DNA of 64,000 bases from an uncultured Gammaproteobacteria bacterium (GTDB lineage Bacteria > Patescibacteriota > Microgenomatia > Levybacterales > GWA1-39-11). The stretch covers positions 23,975 to 87,974 of the forward strand of contig CAZIAP010000001.1 in assembly GCA_964537315.1 (NCBI GenBank), written 5' to 3'. The notes beneath the pieces are model-generated. The model made no database searches. It was not told where the DNA came from and saw nothing but the letters and a program-made list of their open reading frames with translations. Positions within the stretch are counted from its first letter, which is position 1, and every line of letters starts with the position of its first letter. Below are positions 12,746 through 33,904 of this stretch, one piece after another. The position numbers and the translations under genes are program-made.

Positions 12746-12754
12746 ATGCAGTTG

Positions 12755-13846: not shown

Positions 13847-13919
13847 AGTGTTATCTTTTCTCCTCTATTTAGCATATGCAAAGAAGAGATAAAAAATCAA
13901 TTAGTAATTAAGTTATTGT

Positions 13920-15695: not shown

Positions 15696-15755
15696 AGAAA
15701 TTTAAATTTCCTACTTACTTATAAATCGTAGGTTAAAGCGTGCTACAATGTCAAT

Positions 15756-16403: not shown

Positions 16404-16431
16404 ATTACCCTATTGACAACCGTTTTAAGAT

Positions 16432-17037: not shown

Positions 17038-17069
17038 TTTTCTAGAAGCAATATAATTTTCTGTAAGGT

Positions 17070-17825
17070 ATGGAACTTTTTTTAGCATCCGTTATATTTA
17101 TATTTGGTTCAATTTTCGGAAGCTTCGTTAACGTACTAATTGATCGCGTTCCGCAAGGGAAATTTTTTGATAATAAGAGGTCGTACTGTGAATCTTGTAA
17201 AAAAAGCTTAAGCTGGTACGATTTAATCCCATTATTTTCGTATATTATTCTTCGTGGTAAGTGTAGAAGATGTAAAAGTAAGATACCTTTTAGAATTTTT
17301 GTAGTTGAGTTATTAACTGGTCTTGGGTTTGTTGCACTCTACTCGCTTATCTATCAATCACTTCCTCTAATTAGCTTTATTATGATTGTTCTAACATTTT
17401 GTTTACTTACGGCTATATTTTTTATAGATGTAAAGCACAGAATCATTCCTAATTCACTACTTATTGCGATTTTGTTATGCACTCTGTTCTATCACATATT
17501 TGCAGGACATGACTTAATACCATACATAATTACAGGCATAGTATCATTTTTAGTTTTTTTCTTATTATTTGCCGTAACAAAAGGCAAAGGAATGGGTTTT
17601 GGGGACGTGAAGTTTGCTTTTGTAATAGGTTTTTTGCTTGGTTTTCCGGCTTCATTAATTGCTTTTTATGCTGCCTTCTTGACAGGAGCTGCTATCTCTA
17701 TCATACTGATAATAGCAGGAAAGAAAAAAGCAAGAGGCAGTGTAATTGCGTTCGGTCCATTTTTAATAATCGGAATTTTAATTGCGACGCTATTTACAGA
17801 TGAAATTATTAAAAAATTTTTTTAA
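17070..17825 (+). CDS. pilD: Prepilin peptidase (A24 family)
   Basis: N-terminal CxxC...CxxC Zn motif 'CESCKK...CRRCKS', multi-TM, 'GMGFGDVKF' catalytic Asp region. Confidence 0.85.
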   Translation: MELFLASVIFIFGSIFGSFVNVLIDRVPQGKFFDNKRSYCESCKKSLSWYDLIPLFSYIILRGKCRRCKSKIPFRIFVVELLTGLGFVALYSLIYQSLPLISFIMIVLTFCLLTAIFFIDVKHRIIPNSLLIAILLCTLFYHIFAGHDLIPYIITGIVSFLVFFLLFAVTKGKGMGFGDVKFAFVIGFLLGFPASLIAFYAAFLTGAAISIILIIAGKKKARGSVIAFGPFLIIGILIATLFTDEIIKKFF

Positions 17826-18339
17826 CAAAAAGTTTTCTTTTGCTTCCTCCATAGCTTCACTACGAAGCAATCTCTCTAGTACTCATGGATTTACTTTAGT
17901 TGAATTGCTGGTTGTAATGGGAGTAATTGGTACTCTTGCAGCTGGTTTGGTAGTGGTGATAAACCCTGCTGCCATGGTAGGTAAAGCACGAGACGCACAG
18001 AGAAAAAGTGATTTTAATCAAATACAAAAAGCCTTGGAATTATATTATGATGATTATAGTGAGTATCCAGTCAATATGGATGATCTGACTACAGTTGGTA
18101 ATTATATGAAAACAATTCCTTCAGACCCTGTTCCGACGCGTTTTCAATATAGGTATGTTCAGATTTCAGGCGGACAGATGTATAGATTATATGCTCACTT
18201 AGAAAATGCAAGTGATCCTCAAGCGTGCTCACCTACAGGTGACTGTCCAAATGCGTCAGGAGTTTCAAATCCGAAATGTGGAGTTGGAGTAGCACAAACA
18301 TGTAACTACGGTGTAACCAGTCCGAATACATCACCATAA
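17800..18339 (+). CDS. Type IV pilin-like protein
   Basis: 'HG|FTLVELLVVMGVIGTLAAG'; start placed at MKLLKN within the track ORF. Confidence 0.65.
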   Translation: MKLLKNFFNKKFSFASSIASLRSNLSSTHGFTLVELLVVMGVIGTLAAGLVVVINPAAMVGKARDAQRKSDFNQIQKALELYYDDYSEYPVNMDDLTTVGNYMKTIPSDPVPTRFQYRYVQISGGQMYRLYAHLENASDPQACSPTGDCPNASGVSNPKCGVGVAQTCNYGVTSPNTSP

Positions 18340-18343
18340 TAAT

Positions 18344-18838
18344 ATGAAAAATTTAATAAATATAATAAGTAAGAAAAATAGTATCAACTTGTCGAGGGGA
18401 TTCACACTGATCGAATTGATTGTGGTAATCACTATAATAGGCATTCTTTCAAGCGTACTAGTGGCAAACTTTATGCAGGTTCGGGAAAAAACACGGGATT
18501 CCGTAAGAAAAAAAGATTTTGAGCAAATACGTTTAGCGCTTGAAACTTACAGGATTGATGTAGGGTCATATCCTGCTCACTCCAGTTCTTTTCTCCCCAA
18601 CTGCCCGGCGAGTGGATCGCTAAGAAATCCTACTAATACATCTGTTGTGTATATGGAACTAATTCCGTGTGATCCTAAAAGTAAAAATCAAAAATATACA
18701 TATAATAGAAGCTCAACATTGAGGTATACATTGTCTGTGTGTTTAGAAAACCCTAATGAGCAGCTAGGACCTACGATTAGGAGTGTAAGCACAAGTCAGT
18801 GTGCTAGTGGTAAACTGCTTGAAGTAACTAATCCATAA
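18344..18838 (+). CDS. Type IV pilin-like protein
   Basis: 'RG|FTLIELIVVITIIGILSSV'. Confidence 0.65.
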   Translation: MKNLINIISKKNSINLSRGFTLIELIVVITIIGILSSVLVANFMQVREKTRDSVRKKDFEQIRLALETYRIDVGSYPAHSSSFLPNCPASGSLRNPTNTSVVYMELIPCDPKSKNQKYTYNRSSTLRYTLSVCLENPNEQLGPTIRSVSTSQCASGKLLEVTNP

Positions 18839-18844
18839 ACATGC

Positions 18845-19387
18845 ATGCGCAATATCCTACGTTTACATATATTTTCTGCCGATGAAGGATTCTCTTTACT
18901 CGAATTAATGGTGGCAATAACCGCTTCTGCTCTAATTGCCGGAGGAGGTTTTTTTGCTTTTATACAGTATTCACGCTCGCAATCTCATTCACAGACTATC
19001 GAAAATATACGCTATGCATATACAGAAGCACGTAATAGCGCCATCTCAAATGTGAAAGTAGACAGGATTGGTTCTACTCCTACCAACTGTGGCACTCTGA
19101 TGGGTTATAGAGTAAATTTAAGTGCAACTTCATACGAAATTCAAATTGTATGTTTGAATAATACTGGTTCTCAGGTGGTAACTGGTAATCCAGTAAGTCT
19201 GCCTTCAGGTATAAGGTTGAGTGGAGCTAATCAATGTTCAGGTCTAGGTTACAGAGTAATTACAGGTAATGTAACAACTTTTTCTGGTTCGACTACTCTA
19301 CCCTGTACGTTCGAAGTACTGCATGACTCAGACAGTTCTTTAAGAAAAACTATAACAATTGAAAATGATGGAAATCTGACGATTTAA
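18845..19387 (+). CDS. Minor pilin-like protein
   Basis: 'DEG|FSLLELMVAITASALIAGG' prepilin-type N-terminus. Confidence 0.55.
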   Translation: MRNILRLHIFSADEGFSLLELMVAITASALIAGGGFFAFIQYSRSQSHSQTIENIRYAYTEARNSAISNVKVDRIGSTPTNCGTLMGYRVNLSATSYEIQIVCLNNTGSQVVTGNPVSLPSGIRLSGANQCSGLGYRVITGNVTTFSGSTTLPCTFEVLHDSDSSLRKTITIENDGNLTI

Positions 19388-19390
19388 TAT

Positions 19391-19900
19391 ATGAAAGAAT
19401 TATTAGTTAGCAAAAAAATGTCAACACAATCAGGATCTGCATTACTGGAGGCAATAATAGCTCTGGGAGCAGTTGTTATGGCAGTAGCCGGAATTGCTAT
19501 ATTAATGGTATCAAGCGCTAGCAACGCTGCATTTATCCAAAATCAAAATCAAGCAAACAAGTATGCGCAGGAGGGTATGGAATACTTAAAGAGTGTGAAG
19601 AATCAAAGTTACACAGATTTTCTGGATCTGTTTCCGGTTTCTGGTGTTGATTACTGTCAAAACGAGCAGTTCCAGAATGTAACTGCAGATAATAACTGCT
19701 CCGGTGCGAGAATTGAAGGAGGAAAATATGTCAGAACAGTAATGGTGAACCATGACTCTTCGAACTGCGAGAATGGCGCACATCAAGTAAGTGTACAAGT
19801 TTCATGGCAGAGCGGAAAATGCGATGTTAATGTAAATTCTTTTTGTCATAACACTTTATTAAGGACATGTTTTGTACGTCCGCCAAATTCAGAATTATGA
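19391..19900 (+). CDS. Minor pilin-like protein (PilV/FimT-like N-terminus)
   Basis: 'QSG|SALLEAIIALGAVVMAV' with Glu+5. Confidence 0.45.
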   Translation: MKELLVSKKMSTQSGSALLEAIIALGAVVMAVAGIAILMVSSASNAAFIQNQNQANKYAQEGMEYLKSVKNQSYTDFLDLFPVSGVDYCQNEQFQNVTADNNCSGARIEGGKYVRTVMVNHDSSNCENGAHQVSVQVSWQSGKCDVNVNSFCHNTLLRTCFVRPPNSEL

Positions 19901-20469
19901 AAAAAGCTAATGGATATACGCTCATAGAGCTATTAGTAGTATCAGGCATATTAGTGGCTGTATCGGGTATTGTAGGAGGAATTCTAGTTTCCACAATGCG
20001 CAGTTCAGAGGTTACACGTTCAACAACACAGATCGCACAGAACGGTAATTATGCGCTTTCGTCAATTAGCGAACTGATAAAGCACTCCCAAGATGTATCA
20101 GCAGTCTGGAACTCGAATAACAGTTATCCTACCAATTTTGCAGGATGTGCTGGAGAATCATCACCTGAGGGAGATTCTTTAGCATTGATGATGCCCGAAG
20201 GACAAGAAGTTCAGTTAACGTGCTCTCATTCATCAGGCAGAGTCGCGTCAACCAGCGGATCTATGACGTATTATCTTACTAACAGAGAGCTCGCAGTTGT
20301 ACAGGGAAGTTGTAAATTTGTGTGTAATCAAAATTCTGCTTTTTCACCTCCTAGGATCGAAGTAAAGTTCGAACTAGGTATACGTGATGGTACAACAAAC
20401 AACGTGCTTGACGGCAGTTCTAAAGTATTTCAAACTCAGATCAGTAGTAGAAATTATATTAACAAATAA
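19897..20469 (+). CDS. Type IV pilin-like protein
   Basis: 'ANG|YTLIELLVVSGILVAVSG'; start at MKKANG. Confidence 0.6.
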   Translation: MKKANGYTLIELLVVSGILVAVSGIVGGILVSTMRSSEVTRSTTQIAQNGNYALSSISELIKHSQDVSAVWNSNNSYPTNFAGCAGESSPEGDSLALMMPEGQEVQLTCSHSSGRVASTSGSMTYYLTNRELAVVQGSCKFVCNQNSAFSPPRIEVKFELGIRDGTTNNVLDGSSKVFQTQISSRNYINK

Positions 20470-20523
20470 ATGAGTACAATATTCTTGACATCCAAGCTAA
20501 AATAATTCTATGATTAAGATAAG

Positions 20524-21354
20524 ATGAAACACAAATCATCGCAGTCAGGTCAAATTTTATTAATAGTTGTATTAAGTATTGTAGTGGCTTTGACTGTTGG
20601 ACTGTCAGTCGCCTCCAGAACAATCTCAAATTTAAGAATTTCTAAACAAAATGAAGAATCACAGCGCGCATTTCAGGCGGCTGAAGCAGGGCTAGAACTT
20701 GCCACGCAGGCTTTAAGCCAGGGATCAAGTGGAAATCTAGCTAGTGGCTTAGATAATACTGCGACATACCAAGTAGAGGTACAATCAGAAGGAGGCAACG
20801 AGATTATTTTAAATGGAGAAAACCTTGTACAGCGTTCAGTAGGACTTGATGTCTGGATGAGTAATCATGATGATTATTCTTCTCCTTTCAGAGGGAGTGT
20901 GATATTGGGTTTTGGTTCTCCTGGTCAGGATTGTAGCTCAAGGAACAAAGATTACGCTCCTGCACTTGAAGTGTTATATATTTATGGAGATCCAAATGCT
21001 CCCCAATTTAGGCGTGATGTATACGATCCTTGTAGAAATATTTCAGGACGTATATCTAATGCTACGGGAGGATCGGCCGGAGCTACTACTATTGCGGGCA
21101 CGCAGTTTCCCTTTTCCATTAATTTAAACCTTTCTTCAGATCCAAGTAACATTTTGATAATGAAGGTGATTCCTATTTATAACTCGACTAAGCTTGGTAT
21201 ACGTAGAGTCAGCGGAAACAGGAATTTGCCTGCGCAGGGGTCAACAATTGTTTCTACTGGTCGTTCAGGAGATACAGTTAGAAAAATAACGTATTTCCAA
21301 TCCCATCCGCAAATTCCTAATGAATTATTCCCGTACGCAATAATCTCACAATGA
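20524..21354 (+). CDS. PilX-like pilus tip/assembly protein
   Basis: 'SQSGQILLIVVLSIVVALTVGL' PilX-type N-terminus lacking Glu+5. Confidence 0.45.
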   Translation: MKHKSSQSGQILLIVVLSIVVALTVGLSVASRTISNLRISKQNEESQRAFQAAEAGLELATQALSQGSSGNLASGLDNTATYQVEVQSEGGNEIILNGENLVQRSVGLDVWMSNHDDYSSPFRGSVILGFGSPGQDCSSRNKDYAPALEVLYIYGDPNAPQFRRDVYDPCRNISGRISNATGGSAGATTIAGTQFPFSINLNLSSDPSNILIMKVIPIYNSTKLGIRRVSGNRNLPAQGSTIVSTGRSGDTVRKITYFQSHPQIPNELFPYAIISQ

Positions 21355-22373
21355 ATAAACGCTTTGGGCTTGACATAGGATCCACTTCAATTAAGGTAGT
21401 TGCTTTAGAAAAGCAAAAAGACCAGTTTACGCTTAATGCCATTGGTTTTTCTCCTGTGGCTGTAAACAGCATACTCTCTGAGTCCCCTGTCGACCAGCAG
21501 ACACTGGCAGAGTCAGTTAAAAATATCCTTAACCAGGCAGGTATTAAGGAAAAAGAAGTGAATTTGGCCATACCTGAGAGCAGTGTCTATATCAAAATAA
21601 TTGAGATGCCTAATCTTTCTGAACAAGAGTTATCGGCCGCTCTCAGATGGGAGATGGAACAGTATATTCCTATGCCTATAGATCAAGTACGGACCGATTG
21701 GCAGGTTTTGAGACGTTCAGATGACAAGGAAAAAACAATGGATGTACTACTTGTCGCAGCTCCTATTGCTACAATTAATAAATACGAAACAGTGCTAGGA
21801 CTAGCTGATCTTACAGCAGAAAATGTAGAAACCGAAATTATTGCTGTACATCGTGCACTTCATCCATTGGTAGCGGGTATGTCGAGTGTTATAGTGCACC
21901 TTGGTGCAACTACTACCGATGTCGCGGTAGTCAAAGATGGGTTGTTAAATATGGTTTTTTCGATCGGTGTTGGTGGATTGGCTATCACAAGGGCGATATC
22001 GTTGGATTTAGGAATTGATGTAAAGCAAGCTGAAGAATACAAACGAGCGTATGGCTTGACTAGAGATACATTTGAAGGAAAAATCGGTAAATCACTCTAC
22101 CCCATTATGGAATCAATTGTAGGAGATATTAAAAAGGCAATGCTCTCATATAAACAAAAAAACGCAAATGATGAGATTAAACAAGTCGTTCTATCCGGTG
22201 GAAATGCTATGCTTCCTGGTTTGGACGTGTTTTTAACTAATACGCTTAATACTCAGGTCGTTTTAGGTAACTGTTGGGAGATCAATAACATTCAAAATGT
22301 ACCCGATCAAGTGAAGACGGACTTCAGTAGGTATAATGTAGTTGTAGGTTTAGCTCTTCGTGACTTTATTTAG
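21351..22373 (+). CDS. pilM: Type IV pilus assembly ATPase-fold protein PilM
   Basis: 'FGLDIGSTSIKVVAL' actin-like fold; overlaps the upstream stop by 4 nt. Confidence 0.8.
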   Translation: MNKRFGLDIGSTSIKVVALEKQKDQFTLNAIGFSPVAVNSILSESPVDQQTLAESVKNILNQAGIKEKEVNLAIPESSVYIKIIEMPNLSEQELSAALRWEMEQYIPMPIDQVRTDWQVLRRSDDKEKTMDVLLVAAPIATINKYETVLGLADLTAENVETEIIAVHRALHPLVAGMSSVIVHLGATTTDVAVVKDGLLNMVFSIGVGGLAITRAISLDLGIDVKQAEEYKRAYGLTRDTFEGKIGKSLYPIMESIVGDIKKAMLSYKQKNANDEIKQVVLSGGNAMLPGLDVFLTNTLNTQVVLGNCWEINNIQNVPDQVKTDFSRYNVVVGLALRDFI

Positions 22374-22929
22374 ATACAGTATGAAATCTACAATCAATCT
22401 TGCCCAGCGTACCAAAACAGGTTCTCAAAAGAAGCATAAGTATACAGTTTATATATATGGTTTATTTGTTGCAGTAATTGCCGTGGCGATGGGTGTAATG
22501 GTCATAAACATTATTTTAAAATCAGAGTTTAGTTCGCTAGAAACAACCGAAAGCCAACTCTTAACACAGATAAACAACCAAGCAGATAAAAAGCTTAAAA
22601 TGCTTATTATATCTGAGCGATATAAAAATATTAAATCACTCCTCGCTTCTCGCGGAAGCTTAGATCAACGACTTGCTTCTCTTATACGTCAATTTCCATC
22701 GACTGTTCGCGTATCAGGAATGAATGTGAAAGATAATGTCATTATATTGACAGTCGAGTCTTCTAATTTGCTTGCTCTTAACACAATATTAGAAAATGAT
22801 CTTCCTGAGTACTTGAAAAGTAATGATATCGGGGTACAGTTGGCTGATGTGAGTTCATTTAAGGCAGCTGAGGGCGTGTATGCGGCAGAGCTTCGTTTTG
22901 AGTTTGCTGGAGGATTAAATAATGAATAA
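22360..22929 (+). CDS. pilN: PilN-like bitopic membrane protein
   Basis: Single N-terminal TM, size and position after pilM. Confidence 0.5.
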   Translation: MTLFRYSMKSTINLAQRTKTGSQKKHKYTVYIYGLFVAVIAVAMGVMVINIILKSEFSSLETTESQLLTQINNQADKKLKMLIISERYKNIKSLLASRGSLDQRLASLIRQFPSTVRVSGMNVKDNVIILTVESSNLLALNTILENDLPEYLKSNDIGVQLADVSSFKAAEGVYAAELRFEFAGGLNNE

Positions 22930-23587
22930 AGATTACGTACTATTTGGTAAAAAATTTACTGCAGAACAAATGCTTGCAGTTTCACTTGTGCTACTCGGTT
23001 TTTTCGTAATTTTGTTTGTTATACTCCCTCAGATTGATAGCATAGGTCTACAAAGAGAACAGAATCAAGCTAAAAAAGCTGAGGTGAATGAGCTTCAAAA
23101 TTCGCTAAACGTAATGCAGTCAATAAGTTCTGAGCAGGTAGAAGCAGATCTGAAGCTTGCAAGCAGTGCGCTTCCTACAAATAAAGACATTATTTCCATA
23201 TTCTCCGCGATCTCTGAACTCGCAAGCTCATCGGATGTACAACTGAGAGGCTTTACAATAAAAGTGGGAGAACTGTATACAAAAGCTACTGGAGAAAGTA
23301 ATCAGGTGGATAATACAACTTCGGTTACTGGAGTTCCCAGCATGGATGTTACAATAACAGTAAGCACAGTTGATGATAAAAACTTAGTCGCGTTTACACA
23401 GCAACTTTACAAAAATTTTCCGATCGCGCGTATTAATACCCTGAATTCTCAAAAAAACGACGGGATGATAGAGCTGTCATTTTATTATCGACCATATGAC
23501 TTAAAACAAATTGAAGGAGTTAACCTTGTCTCGCCTTATAACACACAATATTCAGATCTCATACAGCAACTAAGTAGCTCAAAGTAG
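22922..23587 (+). CDS. pilO: PilO-like bitopic membrane protein
   Basis: Single TM and coiled-coil region; synteny. Confidence 0.45.
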   Translation: MNKDYVLFGKKFTAEQMLAVSLVLLGFFVILFVILPQIDSIGLQREQNQAKKAEVNELQNSLNVMQSISSEQVEADLKLASSALPTNKDIISIFSAISELASSSDVQLRGFTIKVGELYTKATGESNQVDNTTSVTGVPSMDVTITVSTVDDKNLVAFTQQLYKNFPIARINTLNSQKNDGMIELSFYYRPYDLKQIEGVNLVSPYNTQYSDLIQQLSSSK

Positions 23588-23588
23588 A

Positions 23589-24272
23589 TTATTTTTTGAG
23601 TAAATCTGGTCTTCTCTCTTCTGTCAATTTGTGTGCAGAATTTGCCCTATATTCGTCAATTTTAGCTGCATGACCAGATAAAAGGACTTCTGGTACCTTA
23701 AGTCCTTTATACTCTTCAGGACGTGTATATTGTGGATGCTCTAGCACTCCGCCTTTTTCATGTGAGAACGACTCGAACCGGTGTGCCTCAGTCTTACTTA
23801 ATACATTGGGAATAAGTCGTATGACAGATTCTGAAATTACCATTGCAGGTATTTCTCCACCTGAGAGCACGTAATCTCCTATTGAGATTTCATCATCAAC
23901 AAAGTTTCGGATACGCGCATCATACCCTTCATAATGTCCACAGATCAGAATTAGATGATCATATTTACTCAGTTTTTCTGCAGTTCTTTGTGTATATGGA
24001 GTTCCGGTTGGAGCAAGTAGAATTACACGCTCTTTTTTGTCTTTAAGACGCGCTGCTTCGATTGCTTCATCTAAGACGTCTACTTTAAGTAACATACCTA
24101 TTCCACCTCCGTATGGTGTATCATCCACTATTTTATGTTTACCTATACCAAACTCTTTTAAGTTAAAAAAACGGATTTTAACATGCCCTTCCTGTTGAGC
24201 ACGTTTAATAATAGAGTAATTGAAGACACCTTCAAACATTTGAGGGAAAAGGGTAATGATGGAGATAACCAT
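23589..24272 (-). CDS. trmD: tRNA (guanine37-N1)-methyltransferase
   Basis: 'ISIITLFPQMF...DDTPYGGGIGMLLK' SPOUT/TrmD motifs. Confidence 0.9.
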   Translation of the reverse strand: MVISIITLFPQMFEGVFNYSIIKRAQQEGHVKIRFFNLKEFGIGKHKIVDDTPYGGGIGMLLKVDVLDEAIEAARLKDKKERVILLAPTGTPYTQRTAEKLSKYDHLILICGHYEGYDARIRNFVDDEISIGDYVLSGGEIPAMVISESVIRLIPNVLSKTEAHRFESFSHEKGGVLEHPQYTRPEEYKGLKVPEVLLSGHAAKIDEYRANSAHKLTEERRPDLLKK

Positions 24273-24368: not shown

Positions 24369-24602
24369 TTATTCTTTCTCAATAACGTCTACTTCTATTT
24401 TCTTTCCTTCTTTAATCGCGCGGATTTTGAGAATATTTTTTATTGCAGAGATGTTCTTGCCGCTTTTACCGATAATTTTACCCATATATTCTTGAGGTAC
24501 GGTAACCCGTAGCCTTACAAACCCATCCTGCTCTTCTTCTTCTATTTCAGATTTAGCTTCAGGGATTGTTTGTTCTAGAATATATGCAAGGAGGTCTTTC
24601 AT
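24369..24602 (-). CDS. KH-domain RNA-binding protein (YlqC-like)
   Basis: 'GKIIGKSGKNISAIKNILK' GxxG KH loop; overlaps the rpsP stop (ATGA). Confidence 0.7.
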   Translation of the reverse strand: MKDLLAYILEQTIPEAKSEIEEEEQDGFVRLRVTVPQEYMGKIIGKSGKNISAIKNILKIRAIKEGKKIEVDVIEKE

Positions 24603-24823
24603 AGCAATGCTTTTACCGCAGGAGATAGCTGCGCGCCGCGTTCCTGCCAGTATTTTACTTTGTCTTTATCAATCTCTTTTGTTACACCTTTAACAGTTTT
24701 TTCGTACCATCCCAAGAAGTCGACTGCTTTACCGTCGCGTTTACTCCTCTTCTCTTTGACCACAATACGATACTTCCGCTCTCCACGGCGACCAATTTTT
24801 GCAAAACGAATTACTAATGCCAT
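24599..24823 (-). CDS. rpsP: 30S ribosomal protein S16
   Basis: 'MALVIRFAKIGRRGERKYRIVV'; start moved to MALVIR. Confidence 0.85.
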   Translation of the reverse strand: MALVIRFAKIGRRGERKYRIVVKEKRSKRDGKAVDFLGWYEKTVKGVTKEIDKDKVKYWQERGAQLSPAVKALL

Positions 24824-24872
24824 ACCCGTGTAGTTTATCATGAGCGTGATTTGAAGTCAATCAGGTGTAATC

Positions 24873-25328
24873 TTATATGCGTTGGAGTTCAATAACTGCA
24901 CCTTGACTGGTTTTCGTATTAACTAACAAATAAAAGGTATATTCAGTAAGTGTAGCTGTTGCTCTAGATTTTGGTTGAACTGTCACTTCTTGATAATCTT
25001 TTGAGCCTCTTTTTCCAAATCTTAAGCTTGCGGGACTATTTGTTTCATTTATGATTAATAATTTTCCGCTGGGTGTCTCATCTGAGGAAAAAACTATTAG
25101 CTCAAGTGGTTCTAATCCTGCATCATTTAGCAATATATATCCTACGTACGAGTCTGCGTCTTCTGAAGTATCATTTGTATTTTGAGTAATGGAATCTCCT
25201 TCTATGGCTGCTTGATCTGAACCTTTTGTTAAGTAATAGGTACCTACTATGATTAGTACACATATTAGTAAAACTGAAATAATGATGTAAATTTTTTTCA
25301 TAAGCTTAAGTTTACGGAGCAACTTCAT
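24873..25328 (-). CDS. Small N-terminally anchored extracellular protein (partner of the upstream giant protein)
   Basis: N-terminal TM 'IYIIISVLLICVLIIVGTYYL' plus a ~120-aa beta-rich domain; overlaps the upstream giant gene by 17 nt. Confidence 0.4.
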   Translation of the reverse strand: MKLLRKLKLMKKIYIIISVLLICVLIIVGTYYLTKGSDQAAIEGDSITQNTNDTSEDADSYVGYILLNDAGLEPLELIVFSSDETPSGKLLIINETNSPASLRFGKRGSKDYQEVTVQPKSRATATLTEYTFYLLVNTKTSQGAVIELQRI

Positions 25329-27762
25329 TCCACATGCTGTTTGATACTTTGTAAAAGTCTGTAAGTGCAGTAATAAAGCTTAGTCTAGATTTTACGAATA
25401 GCGATGGATTTGTAGCATCTGCCGTACATAATGTTCTGTCATTGATTAGTCTGCCACCAGCGCTCTCTACTCCGAATGGATTATCAGCATTTGCAACCAG
25501 TGTTCCTTCAATATTTAATCTCCTGTCAGCTGTAGCGGGGCAGTTTGCGATACTCGGTATTAGTATATCGTTTTCTGCCGTTATAATTGCTTGAAGGTTT
25601 GGGTTTGTGCTTGATGGATTAACCTCACCTACATTAGTTCCAATGGTGACATCGCCTTTGGCTGCGAAAATCAGTAGGGACTTGCCAGTTGCTACCCTTA
25701 CATCGCTGTTTATCGTGATATTTCCTTTAGCCAAGATGATAATTTTATGATCATTATTTATCGAGCGGTTCGCAGGGCCAGATGGGTTAAATGTTAGATC
25801 ACCATCTACATAATAGAAAGTTTGGTTATTCAAGCTACTGAGGCTTGCAATAAAAGTACAGTTACCACTGGGTGAACAGCCAGGCAATGGAGTTAAGTTT
25901 ACAGCCGCGCTCTGTTCTTGACGTTTTTTATAGAAACTGTATGATGCGTTTCCTTCTCGGTTTGAAGCACCTACTTGATCGTATTCATTGTCTACCCTCC
26001 AAATGTCTGAAGCGGATCCAAATAGCGAACTTCCTGTGGTGCTATAAAATACTGAGGCTGTACCACTATTAATGGAAGTTGTAGGACGCTCTCCTGCGGG
26101 TACTCGGTTTTGTATAGTTTGCTGTCTTACACTGCCTATTTCAGTCTGGAACCAGGGTTGTGTAGTCTTAAGGATGATGGTGATGTCATCAGGAGGATTT
26201 GATATATCAAATGGTCCATAAGTTGGGTTTGATAAGTCTACCTGTGTTTGTACTCCATTTTGCGTAATTATCGCACACTGAACTACCCTGCTTCCTATGT
26301 TTGATAAGGTAAGATGATACTCATTGCCTGCAGGACCTGTGACTGAGATCGAGTATCTGCCATTTGCGCCTGTAGGGTTTGATGGCCAGTTATCTGTGTT
26401 TCTAAACACTGATGCGACTGCACCCGGAACCCCGACTAAACCTGTTAAGTTACACTCGCCTGTGGGACTATCTCCTATAGTCCCTGTTACCGTATTAGTA
26501 ATATCCGTGTTACCTGGCGCATTTAGGATAAGCGGATGGTTGTATGTTCTATTTCCAGTAACGGATATTTCCGGTGAATAGGTATCAGAAGTGTAGGTTG
26601 TTGGAATTTCTGCATATCTGATTCTATATCTTCCGGTTGTTAAATTACTGAATATTCGTCTACCATTATTAATTCCTGAAGTTGCTGTATACCCGTTAGT
26701 GACCGCAGTCCAGTTGCTTCCAGATCTCCTTTCCAGGTAGACTCGGGTACGGGGACCCGGATCTTCTGCTGAATCAAACTGTCCATTACCATTGAAATCA
26801 ACAATAAGTATTCCCAGAATACTAATGTCATCTTGAGTTTGCCATTCTCCGTCTCCATCACGGTCTACAAATACCCCAGCGTTTAATGTATGAGTTGAAG
26901 GTGCTGTTGTCGGTGTGTTTACTCTTCGAGTAGGTGTAGGTGTATTAGGGACTCTACAGCGCATTAAACCTCCTCCAGGAGGAGGAAGACATCTGCTACA
27001 ACCGTCAGCAGCATTCGCGCATTGTGAATCGAACGAGCAGGTAGCATTGCATCTATTTACTGAACCGGGTGCACTTGTAGGAGTGCGTGTTGGAAGAGTA
27101 CCGCCTCCACCACCGCCACCACCACAGTCCGTAGGACAAGAAGTTGGAGTTTCTCCTGCTCCTGTTTCACATGCTCCATTTCCACAAACTGCTCCTCCAC
27201 CAGAACCTGTTCTACATGTACCATTTTGACAAGTCATGGTCCCACAGCATTGTGTATTGCTTGTACAACTACCACCCGATGATCTGCAGCACTGATTACT
27301 AACGCAGCTTAGTTGCTGTCCACTACAGCACGGCGCTGCTCCTGCACCACTCGGAGTGTTACACGATTGTCCAACATTTCTACAGGATTCTCCCCCTCCT
27401 CCGCTACCAGATCCTTCACATCTATTAGTACTGAGATTACAGGTTAGATTACTACAGCAGTTTCCGATACCTGCACCACAAGACTGCCCAGTTGACCTGC
27501 AAGAAGTATCAGGCGTCGGGGTAGCGTTACTTCTCGGGACGCAGCATATATTATTAGCCTGAAGATTTGGACAGAGCTCATTATTTCCACCTTGTTGTGT
27601 TTGATAACCTGCAGGACAAGGTGATGACGTCGTACAGTATCCTCCTCTTTGTGAACAAGTCTGCGCTGATACACTTTTAAAAATTCCGCTATCGGTGCCG
27701 ATAATCAAAAACAGCAGAAAAATGATTATCTGCCCCGTCAAAAAGTATATAAATTTTTTCAT
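25312..27762 (-). CDS. Giant secreted Cys-rich surface (adhesin-like) protein, paralog 1
   Basis: Signal peptide; ~230 aa with tandem knottin-like spacings (e.g. 'SCRSTGQSCGAGIGNCCSNLTCNLSTNRC'), 'GGGGGGGG' run, PT-rich linkers, SdrD/Cna-B-like 'GVFVDRDGDGEWQ' module, ~400-aa C-terminal domain shared with 28754..31255. Confidence 0.6.
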   Translation of the reverse strand: MKKFIYFLTGQIIIFLLFLIIGTDSGIFKSVSAQTCSQRGGYCTTSSPCPAGYQTQQGGNNELCPNLQANNICCVPRSNATPTPDTSCRSTGQSCGAGIGNCCSNLTCNLSTNRCEGSGSGGGGESCRNVGQSCNTPSGAGAAPCCSGQQLSCVSNQCCRSSGGSCTSNTQCCGTMTCQNGTCRTGSGGGAVCGNGACETGAGETPTSCPTDCGGGGGGGGTLPTRTPTSAPGSVNRCNATCSFDSQCANAADGCSRCLPPPGGGLMRCRVPNTPTPTRRVNTPTTAPSTHTLNAGVFVDRDGDGEWQTQDDISILGILIVDFNGNGQFDSAEDPGPRTRVYLERRSGSNWTAVTNGYTATSGINNGRRIFSNLTTGRYRIRYAEIPTTYTSDTYSPEISVTGNRTYNHPLILNAPGNTDITNTVTGTIGDSPTGECNLTGLVGVPGAVASVFRNTDNWPSNPTGANGRYSISVTGPAGNEYHLTLSNIGSRVVQCAIITQNGVQTQVDLSNPTYGPFDISNPPDDITIILKTTQPWFQTEIGSVRQQTIQNRVPAGERPTTSINSGTASVFYSTTGSSLFGSASDIWRVDNEYDQVGASNREGNASYSFYKKRQEQSAAVNLTPLPGCSPSGNCTFIASLSSLNNQTFYYVDGDLTFNPSGPANRSINNDHKIIILAKGNITINSDVRVATGKSLLIFAAKGDVTIGTNVGEVNPSSTNPNLQAIITAENDILIPSIANCPATADRRLNIEGTLVANADNPFGVESAGGRLINDRTLCTADATNPSLFVKSRLSFITALTDFYKVSNSMWNEVAP

Positions 27763-27766
27763 ATCT

Positions 27767-28216
27767 TTAAAAAACTACCAGCGTCATCATTTGATCTGAT
27801 CCTTCAACTTGTAGGACATAATTGCCTGCATAAGGAAGATAAATTTCTTCAAACTTATTGTACTCTAGTGTAAATTGATGAGGCAGCCCTGCACCCTCGG
27901 GTTGCTGAGTAGTTTTAAACGTTATCGGGTCTGAGTCAATATTCAGCACAGTAACGTGAACAACCTCGTCGCCTGCTCTTTTAAAAACTATCTCATTTCG
28001 CTCTAGTCTCCCGTTTTCATACAGTACCAGCCCATGAGTGTTCAAGTCTGCGTGTGCTTCTTGCAATATTTGAGTTACTCTTTGAGGTCCACTATTAAGG
28101 TCAGGAGGTAGTTGGGATGATGTAGAGTTATTTCGAATATAAACAATGCCAATAACTAATACTAAACATAATGCAATAAGTGAGGCGGTGATTAGTATGA
28201 TATTTTTCTGCTTCAT
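27767..28216 (-). CDS. Small N-terminally anchored extracellular protein
   Basis: N-terminal TM 'IILITASLIALCLVLVIGIVYI' plus ~120-aa domain; stop 4 nt before paralog-1 start. Confidence 0.4.
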   Translation of the reverse strand: MKQKNIILITASLIALCLVLVIGIVYIRNNSTSSQLPPDLNSGPQRVTQILQEAHADLNTHGLVLYENGRLERNEIVFKRAGDEVVHVTVLNIDSDPITFKTTQQPEGAGLPHQFTLEYNKFEEIYLPYAGNYVLQVEGSDQMMTLVVF

Positions 28217-28312
28217 GAAGTAATTTGACTGCTAATTATATATTACACAAAAATTTCCAGATTTGTAAACCCTGCTTTAATTTTAAATGTTGTAGTTTGA
28301 TTTATCCGGAGC

Positions 28313-28753
28313 TTATTGGTTACGTACGTGTATTGTGACAGCTTGATTTGTTTGTGTGTTTCTCAACTCATAAGTATTGTATTCATGGAGTGTCATTATA
28401 ATGTGTCCATGTTTGGGAATAGACATCGGCGGATAGAGCTCAGTCTTATCATGAGATTTGTTAACAGAAACTGAAACCGCTTCGTCCGATGAGTTTGCTA
28501 TTACTAAAGTTGCAAATGGGATTTCATCGTTTGATGATATATTAACTTCTTTAGATTCAAATCCCTCGTTTGAAATCAATATACTTCCAGTAGATTTTGG
28601 TACGACAGATTTCTCTGTTTGTTGCGTAACATTTTTGTTTACTTGTTGAGTAATTTGTGTAAATGGCAGTTTGGTAATTACAAATCCACTAATAACTAGC
28701 ACTGCGGACAGGATTAATAAACCTAGAATTAATATTTTTTTATTCTTATACAT
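28313..28753 (-). CDS. Small N-terminally anchored extracellular protein
   Basis: N-terminal TM 'ILILGLLILSAVLVISGFVI'; start abuts the paralog-2 stop. Confidence 0.4.
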   Translation of the reverse strand: MYKNKKILILGLLILSAVLVISGFVITKLPFTQITQQVNKNVTQQTEKSVVPKSTGSILISNEGFESKEVNISSNDEIPFATLVIANSSDEAVSVSVNKSHDKTELYPPMSIPKHGHIIMTLHEYNTYELRNTQTNQAVTIHVRNQ

Positions 28754-31255
28754 TTATGGTTCAACCTCATTCCAAATGCTTGTTGATACTTTATAAAAGT
28801 CAGTGAGTGAAGTAATAAAGCTTAGTCTAGATTTTACATATAGTGATGGATTGTCTGAGTCTGCTGAGCACAAAGTCCTATTATTTATCAATTTACCACC
28901 TGAACTTTCTACGCCGAATGGATTGTCTGAGTTGGCGACCAGGGTTCCTTCAATATTTAGCCTGCGGTCAGGATTTGCCGGACAGTCTGCGGTTCCTTGA
29001 ATCGTAATATTATCTTCGGCGGTTATAATGGCCTGAATATTAGGTGCGGAACTTTCCGGGTTAAGTTGTCCTACGTCGTTACCAATAATCACGTTATTTT
29101 TTGCAGCAAGTATCAGTAGTGATTTTCCATCACGTACGCGCGCATCACGGTTGATAGTAAGAGTTCCGTTTACAAGGATTACTACTCTTGCGTTAGAATC
29201 AAGCAATGGATCGCTAGGATTAAAGATTAGATCTCCATCTACATGATACAGTACTTGGTGATCAAGTTCGCTTAAAGGACGACTAAAAGTGCATCTTCCT
29301 GATGTAGGACAATGTGGAAGGTTGACCAACTGAGGACCTGTCTGCTGGGAACGTTTAATATAAAAGCTGTATGAAGCATTTCCTTCTCGATTATTGGAAC
29401 CTGTCTGATCATACTCATTATCAACTTTCCAGAGATTTGATGCAGTTCCGAGCATTGATCTGCCCTGCGTACTATAAAACACAGAGGCAGTTCTCCCTGA
29501 CGTTGAGGTAGGGCTTTTGCCTTCTGGTACTTTATTATTAATTCTTTGCTGCTTAACGCTGCCTATATCTGTCATAAACCAAGGCTGTCCAATACTTAGA
29601 ACGAAAGTAACCTCTGTATCATCAGGGAAATTTATAGAGTGTGAAGGACTGGTAGTGTCGATCTGTGTGCCATTTCCAAGAATAATACACTGAACTTGTA
29701 AATTACCGAAATTAGAGATATTTATAAAGTGAGAGTTGTTTGGATCGTCTGTTACTGTGATTGAGTAATTCCCGTTTGTGTCAGTAGCATCTGTCCAGGT
29801 TTGAACTGGTGATTCAGTATTGTTAATTGACACTAATACATTAGCCAGAGGTGTTGCCCCTGTTAGGCTACATATTCCATACTGGTTGCTTACAACATTT
29901 CCTCCAACATTTGAGGATATGTCATTTTCTGAGTTTGTGTCGACGGTAAGAGGTAAATAACGAGAGTAATTATTTGAAATTTGTACTGGAGGATAAGCAT
30001 ATGAAGTCGGACTGTAGGTTGACGGTATTTCTGAAAACTCAAGGCTGTATGTGCCTGTGGCAATTCCGTTAAAATTTATTTTACCGTTTGCCGCAGTGTA
30101 CCCATTTCCGACTTGAGTCCCGTTATTACGTCTGAGAATTACACGGGTACGAGGACCGGATTCTTCAGCCAGATCGTACTGTCCATTACCATTATAGTCG
30201 ACCAGTAATACCCCTCCAAGTATTAAGTCATTTTGTTCCTGCCAGATACCATTCATATCACGATCTACAAATACTCCCGCTGTTACTGTATGAGATCCGG
30301 TAGGAGGCGTTATTGGGGTTGGGGTAGATGTTGGATTCGACTGTCTATTAAGTGGAAAATATATCTGCGTAATGTAAGATCCGTTGTTTTGTATTTGTGG
30401 TATGTTAACCGTTTTAGGATTACTGGAAAGGTCTACATAGCCGGGAGGACTTAAACGCGATATGTTATATGATCCGTGAGTAGGTACATCTTGTCTAAAG
30501 AATCCTGCAGAGTTAGTCACTATTGTTACTCCATAAGAGTTTGGTCCAGTGATCCTAATCTGAGCTCCCTGTATACGCTCGTCTGGAGCGCTCAGCGTGG
30601 TATCACCATCTTCATCTACAAACACATACCCGGTTATAGTGTAGGTTTGTATTGGTGGTTGTGCTGAAGTTGGTGTTGGTGAATTTGTTGGTACTACTGG
30701 TGGAGTTGTTGGTGTAGGTGTATTTGGTCTGGCTGTGGGTGTTCTGGTTGGAGTTCGGGTAGGTGTAGGGGTTGCTGGACGACGTATTCCAAAATCTCTA
30801 GTATCAACATCTATGAAACCAGTTCCCCCTGTAGTTTCTACTGAATAAGAAGTAGCCGTAGTTGCTACATAGCCAGATGGCACAGAGATTGAAACGTTCC
30901 TTGTTCCACCTGTAAGTCCTTCAAAGCTATAATATCCTTTGCTATCAGTAGTTTTGGTACCTTTTCCTGTTAAAGATATTGTGACACTTGAAACCCCTTG
31001 CTCACCGGAATCCCAAGTTCCATTACTATTTGAATCAATAAATACCGTTCCTCTTATCACACTACTAGTTGAATTGGCGCATTTGTTATTCGAACAATTA
31101 GCATGGCAGCATTCTTGATCAGAGCTACAGGTTTGATTTAGCCATTTACATACTTGAGCATTAACGTTCGATGTTAGGTTAAAAAATGACAAACCCGCTA
31201 CTATAATAGTGAATAAAACTATTTGACGAGCTACAAATTGTAGAGCTTTTCTCAT
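28754..31255 (-). CDS. Giant secreted surface (adhesin-like) protein, paralog 2
   Basis: Signal peptide; one knottin-spaced module 'CKWLNQTCSSDQECCHANCSNNKC' (C-x6-C-x5-CC-x3-C-x4-C); three SdrD-B/Cna-B-like modules ('GTVFIDSNSNGTWDSGEQ', 'GYVFVDEDGDTT', 'GVFVDRDMNGIWQ'); PT linkers; C-terminal ~400 aa near-identical to paralog 1. Confidence 0.6.
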   Translation of the reverse strand: MRKALQFVARQIVLFTIIVAGLSFFNLTSNVNAQVCKWLNQTCSSDQECCHANCSNNKCANSTSSVIRGTVFIDSNSNGTWDSGEQGVSSVTISLTGKGTKTTDSKGYYSFEGLTGGTRNVSISVPSGYVATTATSYSVETTGGTGFIDVDTRDFGIRRPATPTPTRTPTRTPTARPNTPTPTTPPVVPTNSPTPTSAQPPIQTYTITGYVFVDEDGDTTLSAPDERIQGAQIRITGPNSYGVTIVTNSAGFFRQDVPTHGSYNISRLSPPGYVDLSSNPKTVNIPQIQNNGSYITQIYFPLNRQSNPTSTPTPITPPTGSHTVTAGVFVDRDMNGIWQEQNDLILGGVLLVDYNGNGQYDLAEESGPRTRVILRRNNGTQVGNGYTAANGKINFNGIATGTYSLEFSEIPSTYSPTSYAYPPVQISNNYSRYLPLTVDTNSENDISSNVGGNVVSNQYGICSLTGATPLANVLVSINNTESPVQTWTDATDTNGNYSITVTDDPNNSHFINISNFGNLQVQCIILGNGTQIDTTSPSHSINFPDDTEVTFVLSIGQPWFMTDIGSVKQQRINNKVPEGKSPTSTSGRTASVFYSTQGRSMLGTASNLWKVDNEYDQTGSNNREGNASYSFYIKRSQQTGPQLVNLPHCPTSGRCTFSRPLSELDHQVLYHVDGDLIFNPSDPLLDSNARVVILVNGTLTINRDARVRDGKSLLILAAKNNVIIGNDVGQLNPESSAPNIQAIITAEDNITIQGTADCPANPDRRLNIEGTLVANSDNPFGVESSGGKLINNRTLCSADSDNPSLYVKSRLSFITSLTDFYKVSTSIWNEVEP

Positions 31256-31378
31256 TCTTTACTGATGAAATATATTCTAATTTAATATTAGACATATTTT
31301 TTTTAATTTGTAAACCTACTAAATTTATTTGAACTATTAAAATGCTGACGATTAGAATGAGGTCTGTATGTTAGTAAA

Positions 31379-33904
31379 TTAATTAATTTGCTTAGTGAAA
31401 AGTGAAATTGGCTTATCAGCAATTTTGAGTGATTGATCTAATTGGTAGTCAGTTTGCAAACTTTGTACAATGATACGCATATAGTTTATCGAACCAAAGT
31501 ATGCTTCCATGTCATCTCTGAAAGCTGGATCTACACTATCTAAAAATGCCGATGATAAGGGTCCATATGATGGGTTAATTTCTTTATCACGTAAGTGGAA
31601 ATTAGAGGTGTATCTTTTAACTTTTCTGTCAAAAAAATCTACTGGCGCATAACCATCCCAATCTTGGTGCTCAGCACCAAGACCGTATTCATCATAGTAT
31701 CCGTATGCTTTATATTCAGGACGTGTGTATTTAAAGTTATCATCAATATGATTAATAAATGACCTACGTGCTAAGTCAACGTTATGAGAGAACTCTTCTC
31801 CGACATCAATGTTTCCCATTTTAGCAAACAGCTTAGCCTCTCCGAGCAGTCCGAGTGAGGTGGCTAGATAATGGTCACTGATGATTCCGTGATTATAAAA
31901 TTCAATATCACCGTTTGAGTCTAATATTACTGTACGAAGACCATCATCTTCTGTTGTGCCTAATGCAAAAGTAGCCTTTGCGTATTTATGAGCAGATGCT
32001 ATCCATTGTTCCCGATTAGGATGATTCGATAGCAAGCTTGCTGCTCCTATAAGCTGTGCTGCTATACCTGCGTTCGTTTCTCCAAAGCTGTTCTCACGAA
32101 TATTATCCTCAGAATTTCCTTTAGGTGGTTGCGAAGCGTAATTATCAGCCATTGCAGTAAGTCTGTTGAGTATTTCATCAACCATGTTAGGCTCTCGTTT
32201 CTGAAGCTCATTTCCATGGAGCTTCAATGCAAGGATAAATTCGAGCATGGGAAATACCTCAGTTGAGGTGTTATCAGGCAGAGAATTACCATTTAAGCTA
32301 ATTAATTCCTTGGAATACTGCCAGGACTTTTTTATAGTCTCATTAGCTTTATCAAACTCACTATTTACTCCGTAAATAATTCCTGCGTTGGTAAGATATG
32401 CGCCCATCCACCATCGCTTATCTTTTATCTCTTGCGTGTAATGTTCTGGAAGAGAGTTAACAAAATTTTGATTGAAAAAAAGTAGGTCTTTATTCTGTAG
32501 AACTTCTTTTAATACATTATTCATATGTTTATTACTTTCTGTAAGTAATAGATTCTCGTGGTTGTTATCTTGAGGCTCAGAATCGTATCTCCAAGTGTGA
32601 TATTGCTTACCAACGTTTCCTGCTTCTACCTGCCAGTCAGATGGGTTAGTAGGATCATAAGTTAGACATCTTCTCTCAAAAACCTGCATTAAGATTTTTT
32701 TAGGAGTCCCTCCAACATTTGCCTCTACCCAATACGGCTCAGTTATCGGTCTACCAATCTCTTTCAAAGGATCGTGATCACGATTATTTATATATTCTTC
32801 GAATGGACCAGCAATATTATGACCAGTAATTTCGTCATAGCTAGAAATAGAAACTTCGTGAGAAACATTTTCTACCTGTGATACTTCTCCTGCTCGGTTG
32901 ATATGCGAAGTAACCTTTGTTCCTTCATGAATTTTTTCTACAGGATCCAATTTGTTATGTAGTGATGCGTACGTGACCCCGTGTGAGTCATCAAGATCGC
33001 CGACTATGTTTATTTCTGCTGGTTTTCGATCTTCAAATTCATTATTTCCTGTTTGGATCTTTCCTTTTATCATTTCCAACGGAAGTAGTCCATTAGTGAC
33101 ATACCAATTACTGTCTGGGTTTCTATCGGGGTTATTGATTTCCATTCTGGACTTATCAAAGTAAACAACCTGCCGTTTACCATTTGGAGAGTCTGAATAT
33201 GGCTCCTCAATAATTTTAGTTAGAGCTTTAGGTCCCCATGTCCATGGTTTTCGTACTGAACCAGTAGCTATGGGTCCATCTGACAATTTCCAAACTCTAT
33301 CAAAGTAAAAGTTTCCCGTTGGTCCGTCTATTCCTTCAAGATTTCTGGTCAACTCGTCTGGTTTTACCATGTAAGTGGCACTTCCATGAGCTTCAGCAGT
33401 TTCAGGGAGAGAGCGCAGTGCAAGCGCTCCTGTTACACCTATAGCTCCTTGTAAAAATCTTCTACGAGACATGGTTGAAGAAAAATTGCTGGTTGAATCA
33501 GGTGATTCTGACTCAATTGATCCTAAAGTCTTTTCTTGTAAGTTATCAGTAGATGTGTTTTTTCTTACTTCCTCAAATTCTTCTAAGTAATGGATTCTTC
33601 GTCTAGAACTAGATAATACAGGGTCAGTACTCAATAATTTTTCAGGTTGTTCCGGAACTGACTGCTCTATGCTCTCTACCATGTCTTCAGGTGACAAGTT
33701 TGTTGAAAAATCATTGGTTGGAATACTAAAATCTTGAGTTTCTTCCTGTCCTCTCTGAGAATGACCGAGCATGTGCGCGATTTTGCCGAAAAGTGATTTT
33801 CTCTGCTCTTGAATCGGTTTTAATGAGGGTTCATGTGATTGATTTGCTTGCTCGGTACGTGAGGTATTATTAATTTCTGAATGATTTGGACTTTCATTTT
33901 CCAT
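31379..33904 (-). CDS. Large secreted protein with a twin-arginine signal (function unknown); the true start may be at 33472
   Basis: 'MSRRRFLQGAIGVTGALALRSLPETAEAHG' Tat motif sits 145 aa into the track ORF; the upstream 144 aa are acidic and low-complexity. Confidence 0.5.
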   Translation of the reverse strand: MENESPNHSEINNTSRTEQANQSHEPSLKPIQEQRKSLFGKIAHMLGHSQRGQEETQDFSIPTNDFSTNLSPEDMVESIEQSVPEQPEKLLSTDPVLSSSRRRIHYLEEFEEVRKNTSTDNLQEKTLGSIESESPDSTSNFSSTMSRRRFLQGAIGVTGALALRSLPETAEAHGSATYMVKPDELTRNLEGIDGPTGNFYFDRVWKLSDGPIATGSVRKPWTWGPKALTKIIEEPYSDSPNGKRQVVYFDKSRMEINNPDRNPDSNWYVTNGLLPLEMIKGKIQTGNNEFEDRKPAEINIVGDLDDSHGVTYASLHNKLDPVEKIHEGTKVTSHINRAGEVSQVENVSHEVSISSYDEITGHNIAGPFEEYINNRDHDPLKEIGRPITEPYWVEANVGGTPKKILMQVFERRCLTYDPTNPSDWQVEAGNVGKQYHTWRYDSEPQDNNHENLLLTESNKHMNNVLKEVLQNKDLLFFNQNFVNSLPEHYTQEIKDKRWWMGAYLTNAGIIYGVNSEFDKANETIKKSWQYSKELISLNGNSLPDNTSTEVFPMLEFILALKLHGNELQKREPNMVDEILNRLTAMADNYASQPPKGNSEDNIRENSFGETNAGIAAQLIGAASLLSNHPNREQWIASAHKYAKATFALGTTEDDGLRTVILDSNGDIEFYNHGIISDHYLATSLGLLGEAKLFAKMGNIDVGEEFSHNVDLARRSFINHIDDNFKYTRPEYKAYGYYDEYGLGAEHQDWDGYAPVDFFDRKVKRYTSNFHLRDKEINPSYGPLSSAFLDSVDPAFRDDMEAYFGSINYMRIIVQSLQTDYQLDQSLKIADKPISLFTKQIN

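Follow-up and report, generated by a model that had tools for sequence, protein, structure and literature searches.

The window analysed here is a stretch of 64,000 nt (positions 23,975-87,974 of contig CAZIAP010000001.1, assembly GCA_964537315.1; positions below are counted within the window) from a genome deposited as an uncultured Gammaproteobacteria bacterium and placed by GTDB in the Levybacterales of the Patescibacteriota (Patescibacteria, or candidate phyla radiation, CPR). On its minus strand, upstream of rpsP, lies a locus of five genes encoding two large modular proteins and three small membrane-anchored proteins (Table 1), which plausibly form an attachment module of the cell surface. 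A sequence-only reading of this DNA had predicted the gene order 833, 146, 149, 816 and 151 aa and a tight packing broken by a single 96-nt gap, and the open reading frames (ORFs) confirmed both. The start of the 146-aa gene abuts the stop of the 833-aa gene (0 nt), 96 nt separate the 146-aa from the 149-aa gene, 4 nt separate the latter from the 816-aa gene, the 816-aa and 151-aa genes overlap by 17 nt, and 31 nt then lead to rpsP. In the public annotation, the 151-aa partner (P0007, 142 aa; P00xx denotes related proteins and L0xx contigs of relatives) begins at the second Met (MKKIY...), a start that would turn the 17-nt overlap into a 10-nt gap. Since ORFs of 2.4 kb in DNA of 38% GC have protein-level homologues elsewhere, the large ORFs are real genes, even if "giant", the term first applied to their products, is too strong for 816-833 aa. 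Upstream of the 833-aa gene, across a gap of 123 nt, are the gene for a conserved 841-aa protein (31379-33904) and then rnc. The GC fraction rises to 0.44 at 26001-28000, compared with ~0.38 elsewhere in the window, which fits the Gly/Cys/Pro/Thr-rich coding of the N-terminal region of the 816-aa protein; long antisense ORFs on the plus strand at 26915-27229 and 26324-26581 look like shadows rather than genes.

Table 1. Features of the five-gene locus and its downstream neighbours (positions in the 64-kb window)
Feature	Position	Strand	Basis or remark
Large protein 2, 833 aa	28754-31255	-	ORF; Pfam SdrD_B; paralogue alignment
Small partner type A, 146 aa	28313-28753	-	Membrane helix and cupredoxin-like ectodomain
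Small partner type B, 149 aa	27767-28216	-	Same architecture as type A
Large protein 1, 816 aa	25312-27762	-	Leader, Cys/Gly/PT-rich region, shared C-part
SdrD-B-like sandwich, large protein 1 (~aa 290-410)	26533-26895	-	Pfam 5.6e-4, 20.5 bits, sub-cut-off; aligns to above-threshold copy in large protein 2
Transthyretin/carboxypeptidase-regulatory-like sandwich, large protein 1 (~aa 418-535)	26158-26511	-	
Predicted C-terminal beta-solenoid, large protein 1 (~aa 536-807)	25342-26157	-	
Near-invariant C-terminal tail ...W-x-E-V-x-P-COOH, large protein 1	25315-25341	-	Alignment and model
Small partner type C, 151 aa	24873-25328	-	Membrane helix and cupredoxin fold
rpsP	24599-24841		Downstream of type C gene
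KH protein gene	24369-24602		Downstream of rpsP
trmD	23589-24272		Beyond KH gene
TTTACA-N18-TAATAT	31285-31314	-	123-nt gap upstream of large protein 2
TTTACA-N18-TAATAT	28240-28269	-	96-nt gap upstream of type B partner
TTTACA-N18-TAATAT	25262-25291	-	Inside 5' end of 151-aa gene

Scans of the window for terminators and promoters gave overall counts no higher than in shuffled sequence, and only the element TTTACA-N18-TAATAT stood out. It occurs three times in 64 kb, in each case within the locus and on its coding strand, where 0.13 occurrences would be expected. The two intergenic copies are ~75% identical over 40 nt (a hand count on the alignment) and share the exact 11-mer GGTTTACAAAT, suggesting that they are duplicated promoters; the copy inside the 151-aa gene may be coincidental. 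We propose that the five genes form two transcription units that arose by duplication, [large 2 - small A] and [small B - large 1 - small C].

Domain architecture of the large and small proteins

As the sequence-only reading had proposed, the two large proteins are paralogues: an alignment of 542 residues gives 52% identity (E 2e-178; aa 313-833 of the 833-aa protein). Both begin with a leader at aa 1-33 that, judged by eye, is of the Sec type and ends in ...VSA/Q or ...VNA/Q. In the 833-aa protein this is followed by a six-Cys module (aa 36-59) and two SdrD-B sandwiches set between PT-rich linkers, and in the 816-aa protein by a Cys/Gly/PT-rich region (aa 34-285) with 34 Cys; each then continues into the shared C-terminal part. 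Of the 40 Cys of the 816-aa protein, 34 fall within the first 270 aa; the 833-aa protein contains 12. Six occupy equivalent positions in the shared part of both, where three Cys pairs are common to the paralogues. Three stretches match the pattern C-x3-7-C-x3-8-CC-x2-6-C-x2-10-C, which is the spacing of inhibitor cystine knots, a fold that they may adopt. Leader, Cys-rich modules and PT-rich linkers thus appear as originally described, and the SdrD repeats are above threshold in one paralogue: Pfam SdrD_B matches the 833-aa protein in 3 stretches at 95.2 bits (cut-off 29.7; 3.8e-27) and the 816-aa protein below the cut-off (Table 1), and NCBIfam SdrC/SdrD models match in part. The N-terminal part is fast-evolving, with 42-57% identity between orthologues over the N-terminal 300 aa as against 61-64% over the C-terminal 300 aa.

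The sequences of the large proteins contain no LPXTG motif, C-terminal transmembrane (TM) segment, lipobox or prepilin motif, and they have no N_methyl or pilin match in Pfam, whereas the true pilins of the window do match N_methyl. Neither SD repeats nor a Pfam or NCBIfam match to an N-terminal, ligand-binding A domain was found. Searches of Pfam, NCBIfam, PADLOC and PHROGs returned no enzyme, toxin, lyase, defence or phage family for these proteins, the C-terminal domain included.

The C-terminal part had been read as a single shared domain of ~400 aa; it instead comprises ~540 aa and three domains, namely an SdrD-B-like sandwich, a transthyretin-like sandwich and a beta-solenoid. A structure model of residues 418-816 of the 816-aa protein, built on a 22-sequence alignment, had a mean predicted local distance difference test (pLDDT) score of 78 and a predicted template modelling (pTM) score of 0.68. 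From N- to C-terminus, it comprises a beta-sandwich, a loop of poor definition (model residues ~150-185), a helix, an extended stack of short strands (confidence mostly high), a C-terminal helix and an unstructured tail (pLDDT <50 at model residues 392-399). On this model, the stack is predicted to be a right-handed beta-solenoid of the type seen in ice-binding proteins (DUF3494) and ComZ, with a helix packed alongside. The only family that recurs on the solenoid is DUF7305 (PF23981), which matched 6 of 22 relatives at E <= 1 (best 2.6e-5) and, in the window, scored 15.1-16.8 bits against a gathering score of 27 over profile positions 51-129 of 185; these matches suggest remote homology only. 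Sequence searches of the PDB, like those of Pfam, NCBIfam, PADLOC and PHROGs, found nothing for the solenoid other than sub-threshold DUF7305. The window proteins terminate in ...MWNEVAP and ...IWNEVEP, and all relatives, out to the most distant (P0039), end in ...DFYK.....W-x-E-V-x-P; in the 22-sequence alignment (model numbering), P399 is invariant and W394 nearly so. The tail is a possible docking or capping motif.

Each of the three small proteins has a hydrophobic helix at its N-terminus and a beta-rich domain behind it, and they have diverged to 23-33% identity in local pairwise alignments (in the multiple alignment, the other two show 19% and 35% identity to the 151-aa protein), in agreement with the earlier description of a shared TM anchor and beta-rich ectodomain. 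A profile of the three paralogues retrieved 16 proteins, including the window's three, from 1.84e9 representatives; type A matches the family profile at 9e-41. Pfam Cupredoxin_1 (PF13473) matched 6 of the 16 members at E <= 1 (best 1.3e-9) and none of the three window proteins, for which Pfam, NCBIfam, PADLOC, PHROGs and PDB sequence searches gave no match. The small proteins are type-II single-pass membrane proteins with a cupredoxin-fold ectodomain, so that the folds of both the partners and the C-terminal domain, initially unrecognised, resolve to cupredoxin and beta-solenoid folds. Over the last 95 residues, which make up the ectodomain, all 16 members have 0 Cys, no alignment column has His or Met in at least 5 of the 16, and in the 151-aa protein His, Cys and Met are all missing; a type-1 or CupA-like copper site is therefore absent. 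An outlier with the canonical Cupredoxin_1 domain, P0018, sits elsewhere, beside DoxX and TauE. We also considered whether all membrane-anchored neighbours of large-family genes make up one family, since single-linkage clustering joined 48 of them, and rejected this because the TM segments drove the clustering.

Distribution, gene linkage and genomic setting

Contigs of relatives were scanned as six-frame ORFs with hidden Markov models of both families. With the last 292 residues as query, six relatives were found among 5.8 billion clusters, and a profile search of the same 5.8e9 clusters found 23 large-family proteins, of which the two with a named source are both labelled Levybacteria. A scan of one genome per species yielded 30 large-family loci, titled Levybacteria/Levyibacteriota, Patescibacteria or, in bulk metagenome-assembled genomes, "uncultured Gammaproteobacteria", a label that we take to be wrong. 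The large family is thus rare and confined to Levybacteria-type genomes, and the small family is even rarer. Several public gene calls of large-family members are too short (P0001, called at 475 aa, has an ORF of 895 aa). The most distant relative found, P0039 (L046, 4672-7452), comes from a genome of higher GC content, has neighbours typical of CPR (e.g., DUF5652) and is really ~870 aa long, the public gene call having split off its very Cys-rich N-terminal half.

Of 20 non-redundant small-family genes with readable context (three in the window, one in L001, three in L006, four in L010, one each in L017, L036, L040, L045 and L048, and two in L042/L043/L044), 19 directly adjoin a large gene, with gaps mostly of 0-4 nt; for the 20th (L045) the contig breaks off on the upstream side, so that all members readable on both sides have a large gene beside them. 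Genes recur in the arrangement [B-type small]-[large]-[A- or C-type small], and larger gaps fall between units. In L006, L010 and L042, type B genes are placed immediately before a large gene, and the type A position is kept orthologously in L006, L010 and L042/L044. In L010 the order is small-large-small-small-large-small-rpsP, i.e., that of the window with one extra small gene upstream. Identity between the window and L010 is 81% for rpsP and 83% for the KH protein, 50-55% for the large proteins and 23-34% for the small ones. A further large-family member lies in L006 (2-3973; at least 1323 aa), upstream of the homologue of the 841-aa protein; it is longer, has an unrelated N-terminal region and ends in ...FWVESAP. 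Being the third such gene in L006, it means that runs of three or four consecutive large genes exist in some relatives.

Three genomic positions of large-family genes are conserved: before rpsP-KH-trmD-pilO-pilN-pilM (seven loci and the window), beside pth/gpmA/eno, and before fusA. The order trmD-pilO-pilN-pilM is kept in several Levybacteria loci. In the window, a complete type IV pilus set spans 11546-23587 and includes pilB, pilT, pilC, pilD and pilMNO. Its minus strand carries pilC, a gene for a pilT-like ATPase and pilB; on the plus strand are a holB-like gene, a pilin gene, a prepilin peptidase gene, five further small ORFs (four with an N-terminal methylation motif), the gene for a PilX_N-like 276-aa protein and pilM/N/O, so that five ORFs of the window carry the pilin methylation motif. 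The sequence-only reading had noted that the locus adjoins these pilus genes. Indeed, pilMNO are close by (21351-23587, plus strand), but since they are convergent to the locus and separated from it by trmD, the KH gene and rpsP, and since the pth/gpmA and fusA positions have no pilus genes, we give this adjacency little weight.

The 841-aa protein, encoded on the minus strand, has no solid Pfam match. It has a long polar N-terminus with a twin-arginine-like motif, RRRFLQGAIGVTGALA, at ~aa 145-163 (TAT_signal E 0.01, below cut-off). Homologues adjoin large-family genes in L006 (61% identity) and L036, different "RRxFL" proteins are encoded just upstream of the large gene in other Levybacteria loci, and the 841-aa protein may belong to the same system as the large and small genes. 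At loci of distant homologues, a gene of 115-125 aa immediately follows the large gene (~35-60 nt) in eight of L002, L013, L014, L016, L020, L022, L024, L029, L031 and L039; in L014 and L039 a related gene lies upstream of the large gene instead. The L002 copy is recorded as PF05635 (23S rRNA-intervening-sequence protein); by sequence, the remaining copies group with it. The PF05635 four-helix family also includes retroelement accessory proteins. A diversity-generating retroelement was nevertheless set aside: the C-terminus of the large proteins is their conserved part, no reverse transcriptase is present in the gene table of L002 (the only locus with a Pfam table), and no PF05635-type gene lies beside the window locus, although no repeat search or reverse-transcriptase screen of the window was made.

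Proposed function and comparison with known systems

Taking as our basis the computed gene structure, paralogy, domain folds, absence of metal ligands and tight adjacency, we suggest that the locus encodes Sec-exported, disulfide-rich, adhesin-like surface proteins together with membrane-anchored accessory or tether subunits, a reading to which we give an even chance. An extracellular character, as first proposed, is supported by the Sec-type leaders, the even numbers of Cys, the SdrD-B and transthyretin-like sandwiches, the beta-solenoid and the lack of any enzyme match. The large proteins would be exported by Sec, disulfide-bonded, non-enzymatic and displayed as adhesin-like or surface-layer-like binding proteins, with their variable N-terminal modules facing outward and the conserved solenoid end proximal to the cell; the ligand might be a host cell, a glycan or DNA. 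The translationally coupled, cupredoxin-like membrane subunits would contact the large proteins and hold or organise them at the membrane in this sub-lineage, serving as a non-covalent, lineage-specific stand-in for the sortase, lipid or transmembrane anchor that the large proteins lack. Attachment is thus a plausible role, with host cells as a putative target, and the system would not be a new kind of machine.

Several observations weigh against this proposal. Large-family homologues at <=43% identity have no small-family gene, and five such loci (L018, L019, L030, L033 and L037) lie directly before rpsP; the partner is therefore not obligatory for the solenoid domain but a lineage-specific accessory. 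The small genes are tied to the large ones and the reverse does not hold, so that the original idea of an adhesin with a cognate partner stands as regards linkage and fails as a general rule; the chaperone, anchor or immunity-like functions that it suggested for the partners are hypothetical. Since the W-x-E-V-x-P tail is present in genomes that have no partner, its receptor, if any, is something other than the partner. Upstream of the large gene, many loci of distant homologues have membrane-anchored genes of other kinds (e.g., for proteins of 170-260 aa in L018, L021-L023 and L033). With TM segments removed, the window's small family stood alone (hhalign probability <=0.2% against the other neighbour sub-families). 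Small hypothetical proteins with a membrane anchor abound in CPR genomes, and synteny among fairly close relatives can persist without function. As to the solenoid, Foldseek against the PDB gave no match at E <= 1e-3, with ice-binding proteins appearing only at E 0.03-0.26; Pfam Ice_binding (PF11999) had no match at E <= 1 in the window proteins or the 22 relatives; and every DUF7305 score inspected was below the gathering score. The signal peptides, finally, were assigned by eye, without a predictor.

The first alternative, which we regard as unlikely, is that these are co-transcribed but functionally independent envelope proteins, their adjacency being an inherited accident of local tandem duplication and the small ones generic, copper-less, cupredoxin-like membrane proteins. 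It would account for the absence of the partner family beside most large-family genes, for the very fast evolution of the partners (see the identities to L010), for the unrelated setting of P0018, and for the fact that the genomes showing adjacency are close kin (rpsP 81-91% identical). It sits poorly with the 19/20 count, with gaps of 0-4 nt or overlaps kept across genomes despite near-saturated divergence, and with the duplication of small and large genes together, in units that each carry a promoter-like element.

A bolder form of the tether proposal holds that the copper-less cupredoxin-like proteins are dedicated docking or assembly subunits for beta-solenoid adhesins, i.e., an undescribed, non-covalent anchoring system of CPR bacteria replacing sortase, lipid or S-layer-homology anchors, with the N-terminal Cys-rich modules as the end that recognises host or substrate. 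We consider this speculative and rather unlikely. In a variant of it, the W-x-E-V-x-P tail would be a C-terminal signal for sorting or docking that is new and shared by all Levybacteria.

By analogy with archaeal SlaA/SlaB, the locus could encode a two-component surface layer in which the large proteins are the outer lattice or canopy and the small ones the stalk or anchor. This is improbable, given that the match to SlaB is a generic sandwich match, that a partner ectodomain of only ~95 residues is short for a stalk, and that most large-family genes have no partner. Still less probable is an association with the type IV pilus, the large proteins acting as a tip adhesin or DNA receptor like ComZ. 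Such a role would explain the neighbouring pilus locus, but the leaders are of the Sec type and not prepilin leaders, N_methyl motif and pilin domain are absent, housekeeping genes on the opposite strand lie between the locus and pilMNO, and paralogous large genes occur at the pth/gpmA and fusA sites, where there are no pilus genes. The match to ComZ may also reflect only a shared fold, because the ComZ solenoid itself resembles ice-binding proteins. A toxin or depolymerase with immunity, the solenoid cleaving glycans or damaging cells and the small proteins protecting the producer, is very improbable: conservation is highest in the C-terminal 300 aa, where polymorphic toxins would vary; searches matched no family of toxins, lyases, defence or phage proteins; small genes lie upstream as well as downstream of large genes; and most homologues have no "immunity" gene. 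Most improbable of all is that the large proteins truly bind ice, as ice-binding proteins or ice adhesins. Pfam Ice_binding had no match even at E <= 1, the record and isolate names of the related genomes, the only habitat clue used, make no mention of ice, and the paper describing ComZ found the resemblance of its fold to ice-binding proteins uninformative about function.

Considering that the way in which CPR bacteria attach to hosts or surfaces is largely unknown, and that almost nothing is known for Levybacteria, the tethered-adhesin proposal makes the locus a concrete, lineage-wide candidate and offers an idea of how surface proteins might be retained on a cell that shows no sortase-type signal. 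The locus also provides another case of a DUF3494-like fold that lacks the ice-binding sequence signature, and of a cupredoxin fold reused without metal. If the interaction between large and small proteins is not confirmed, an ordinary set of hypothetical surface proteins would remain. Literature searches found nothing relevant on the function of DUF7305 or on DUF3494 in Patescibacteria, and no description of a solenoid protein paired with a copper-less cupredoxin membrane protein.

Several known systems share individual features with the locus. The solenoid fold is like that of the DUF3494, or type-1, ice-binding proteins (Colwellia IBP, 3wp9; Shewanella frigidimarina IBP_1, 6bg8); however, the window proteins lack the Pfam Ice_binding match, no evidence of an icy habitat was seen in record names, and they add the C-terminal helix, the W-x-E-V-x-P tail, the Cys-rich N-terminal modules and the adjacent cupredoxin-like genes. 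A similar beta-solenoid is found in ComZ, the competence pilus tip protein of Thermus thermophilus (6qvi), where it is inserted in a pilin fold and assembled into a pilus, whereas the window proteins have a Sec leader and no pilin domain. The small partners resemble the membrane-associated cupredoxin-like domains of the Cupredoxin_1, EfeO-N, FtrB and CupA type, but the window proteins have neither a copper site nor a Pfam match, and their gene context is that of surface proteins and not of metal transport. With archaeal SlaA/SlaB they share the logic of a large secreted protein encoded beside a small membrane-anchored holder, although there is no homology, the ectodomain of the window partner is a single domain of 95 residues, and a lattice of the window proteins would be hypothetical. 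The Sdr/MSCRAMM adhesins of Gram-positive bacteria have in common with the large proteins the SdrD-B (CnaB-like) stalk repeats and a secreted, modular architecture; the large proteins differ in having no LPXTG with TM segment, no A-domain match and no SD repeats, and in that their conserved, functional-looking module is C-terminal. Taken together, the closest working likeness is to modular adhesins of the Gram-positive type and to the ice adhesins that combine Ig domains with DUF3494.

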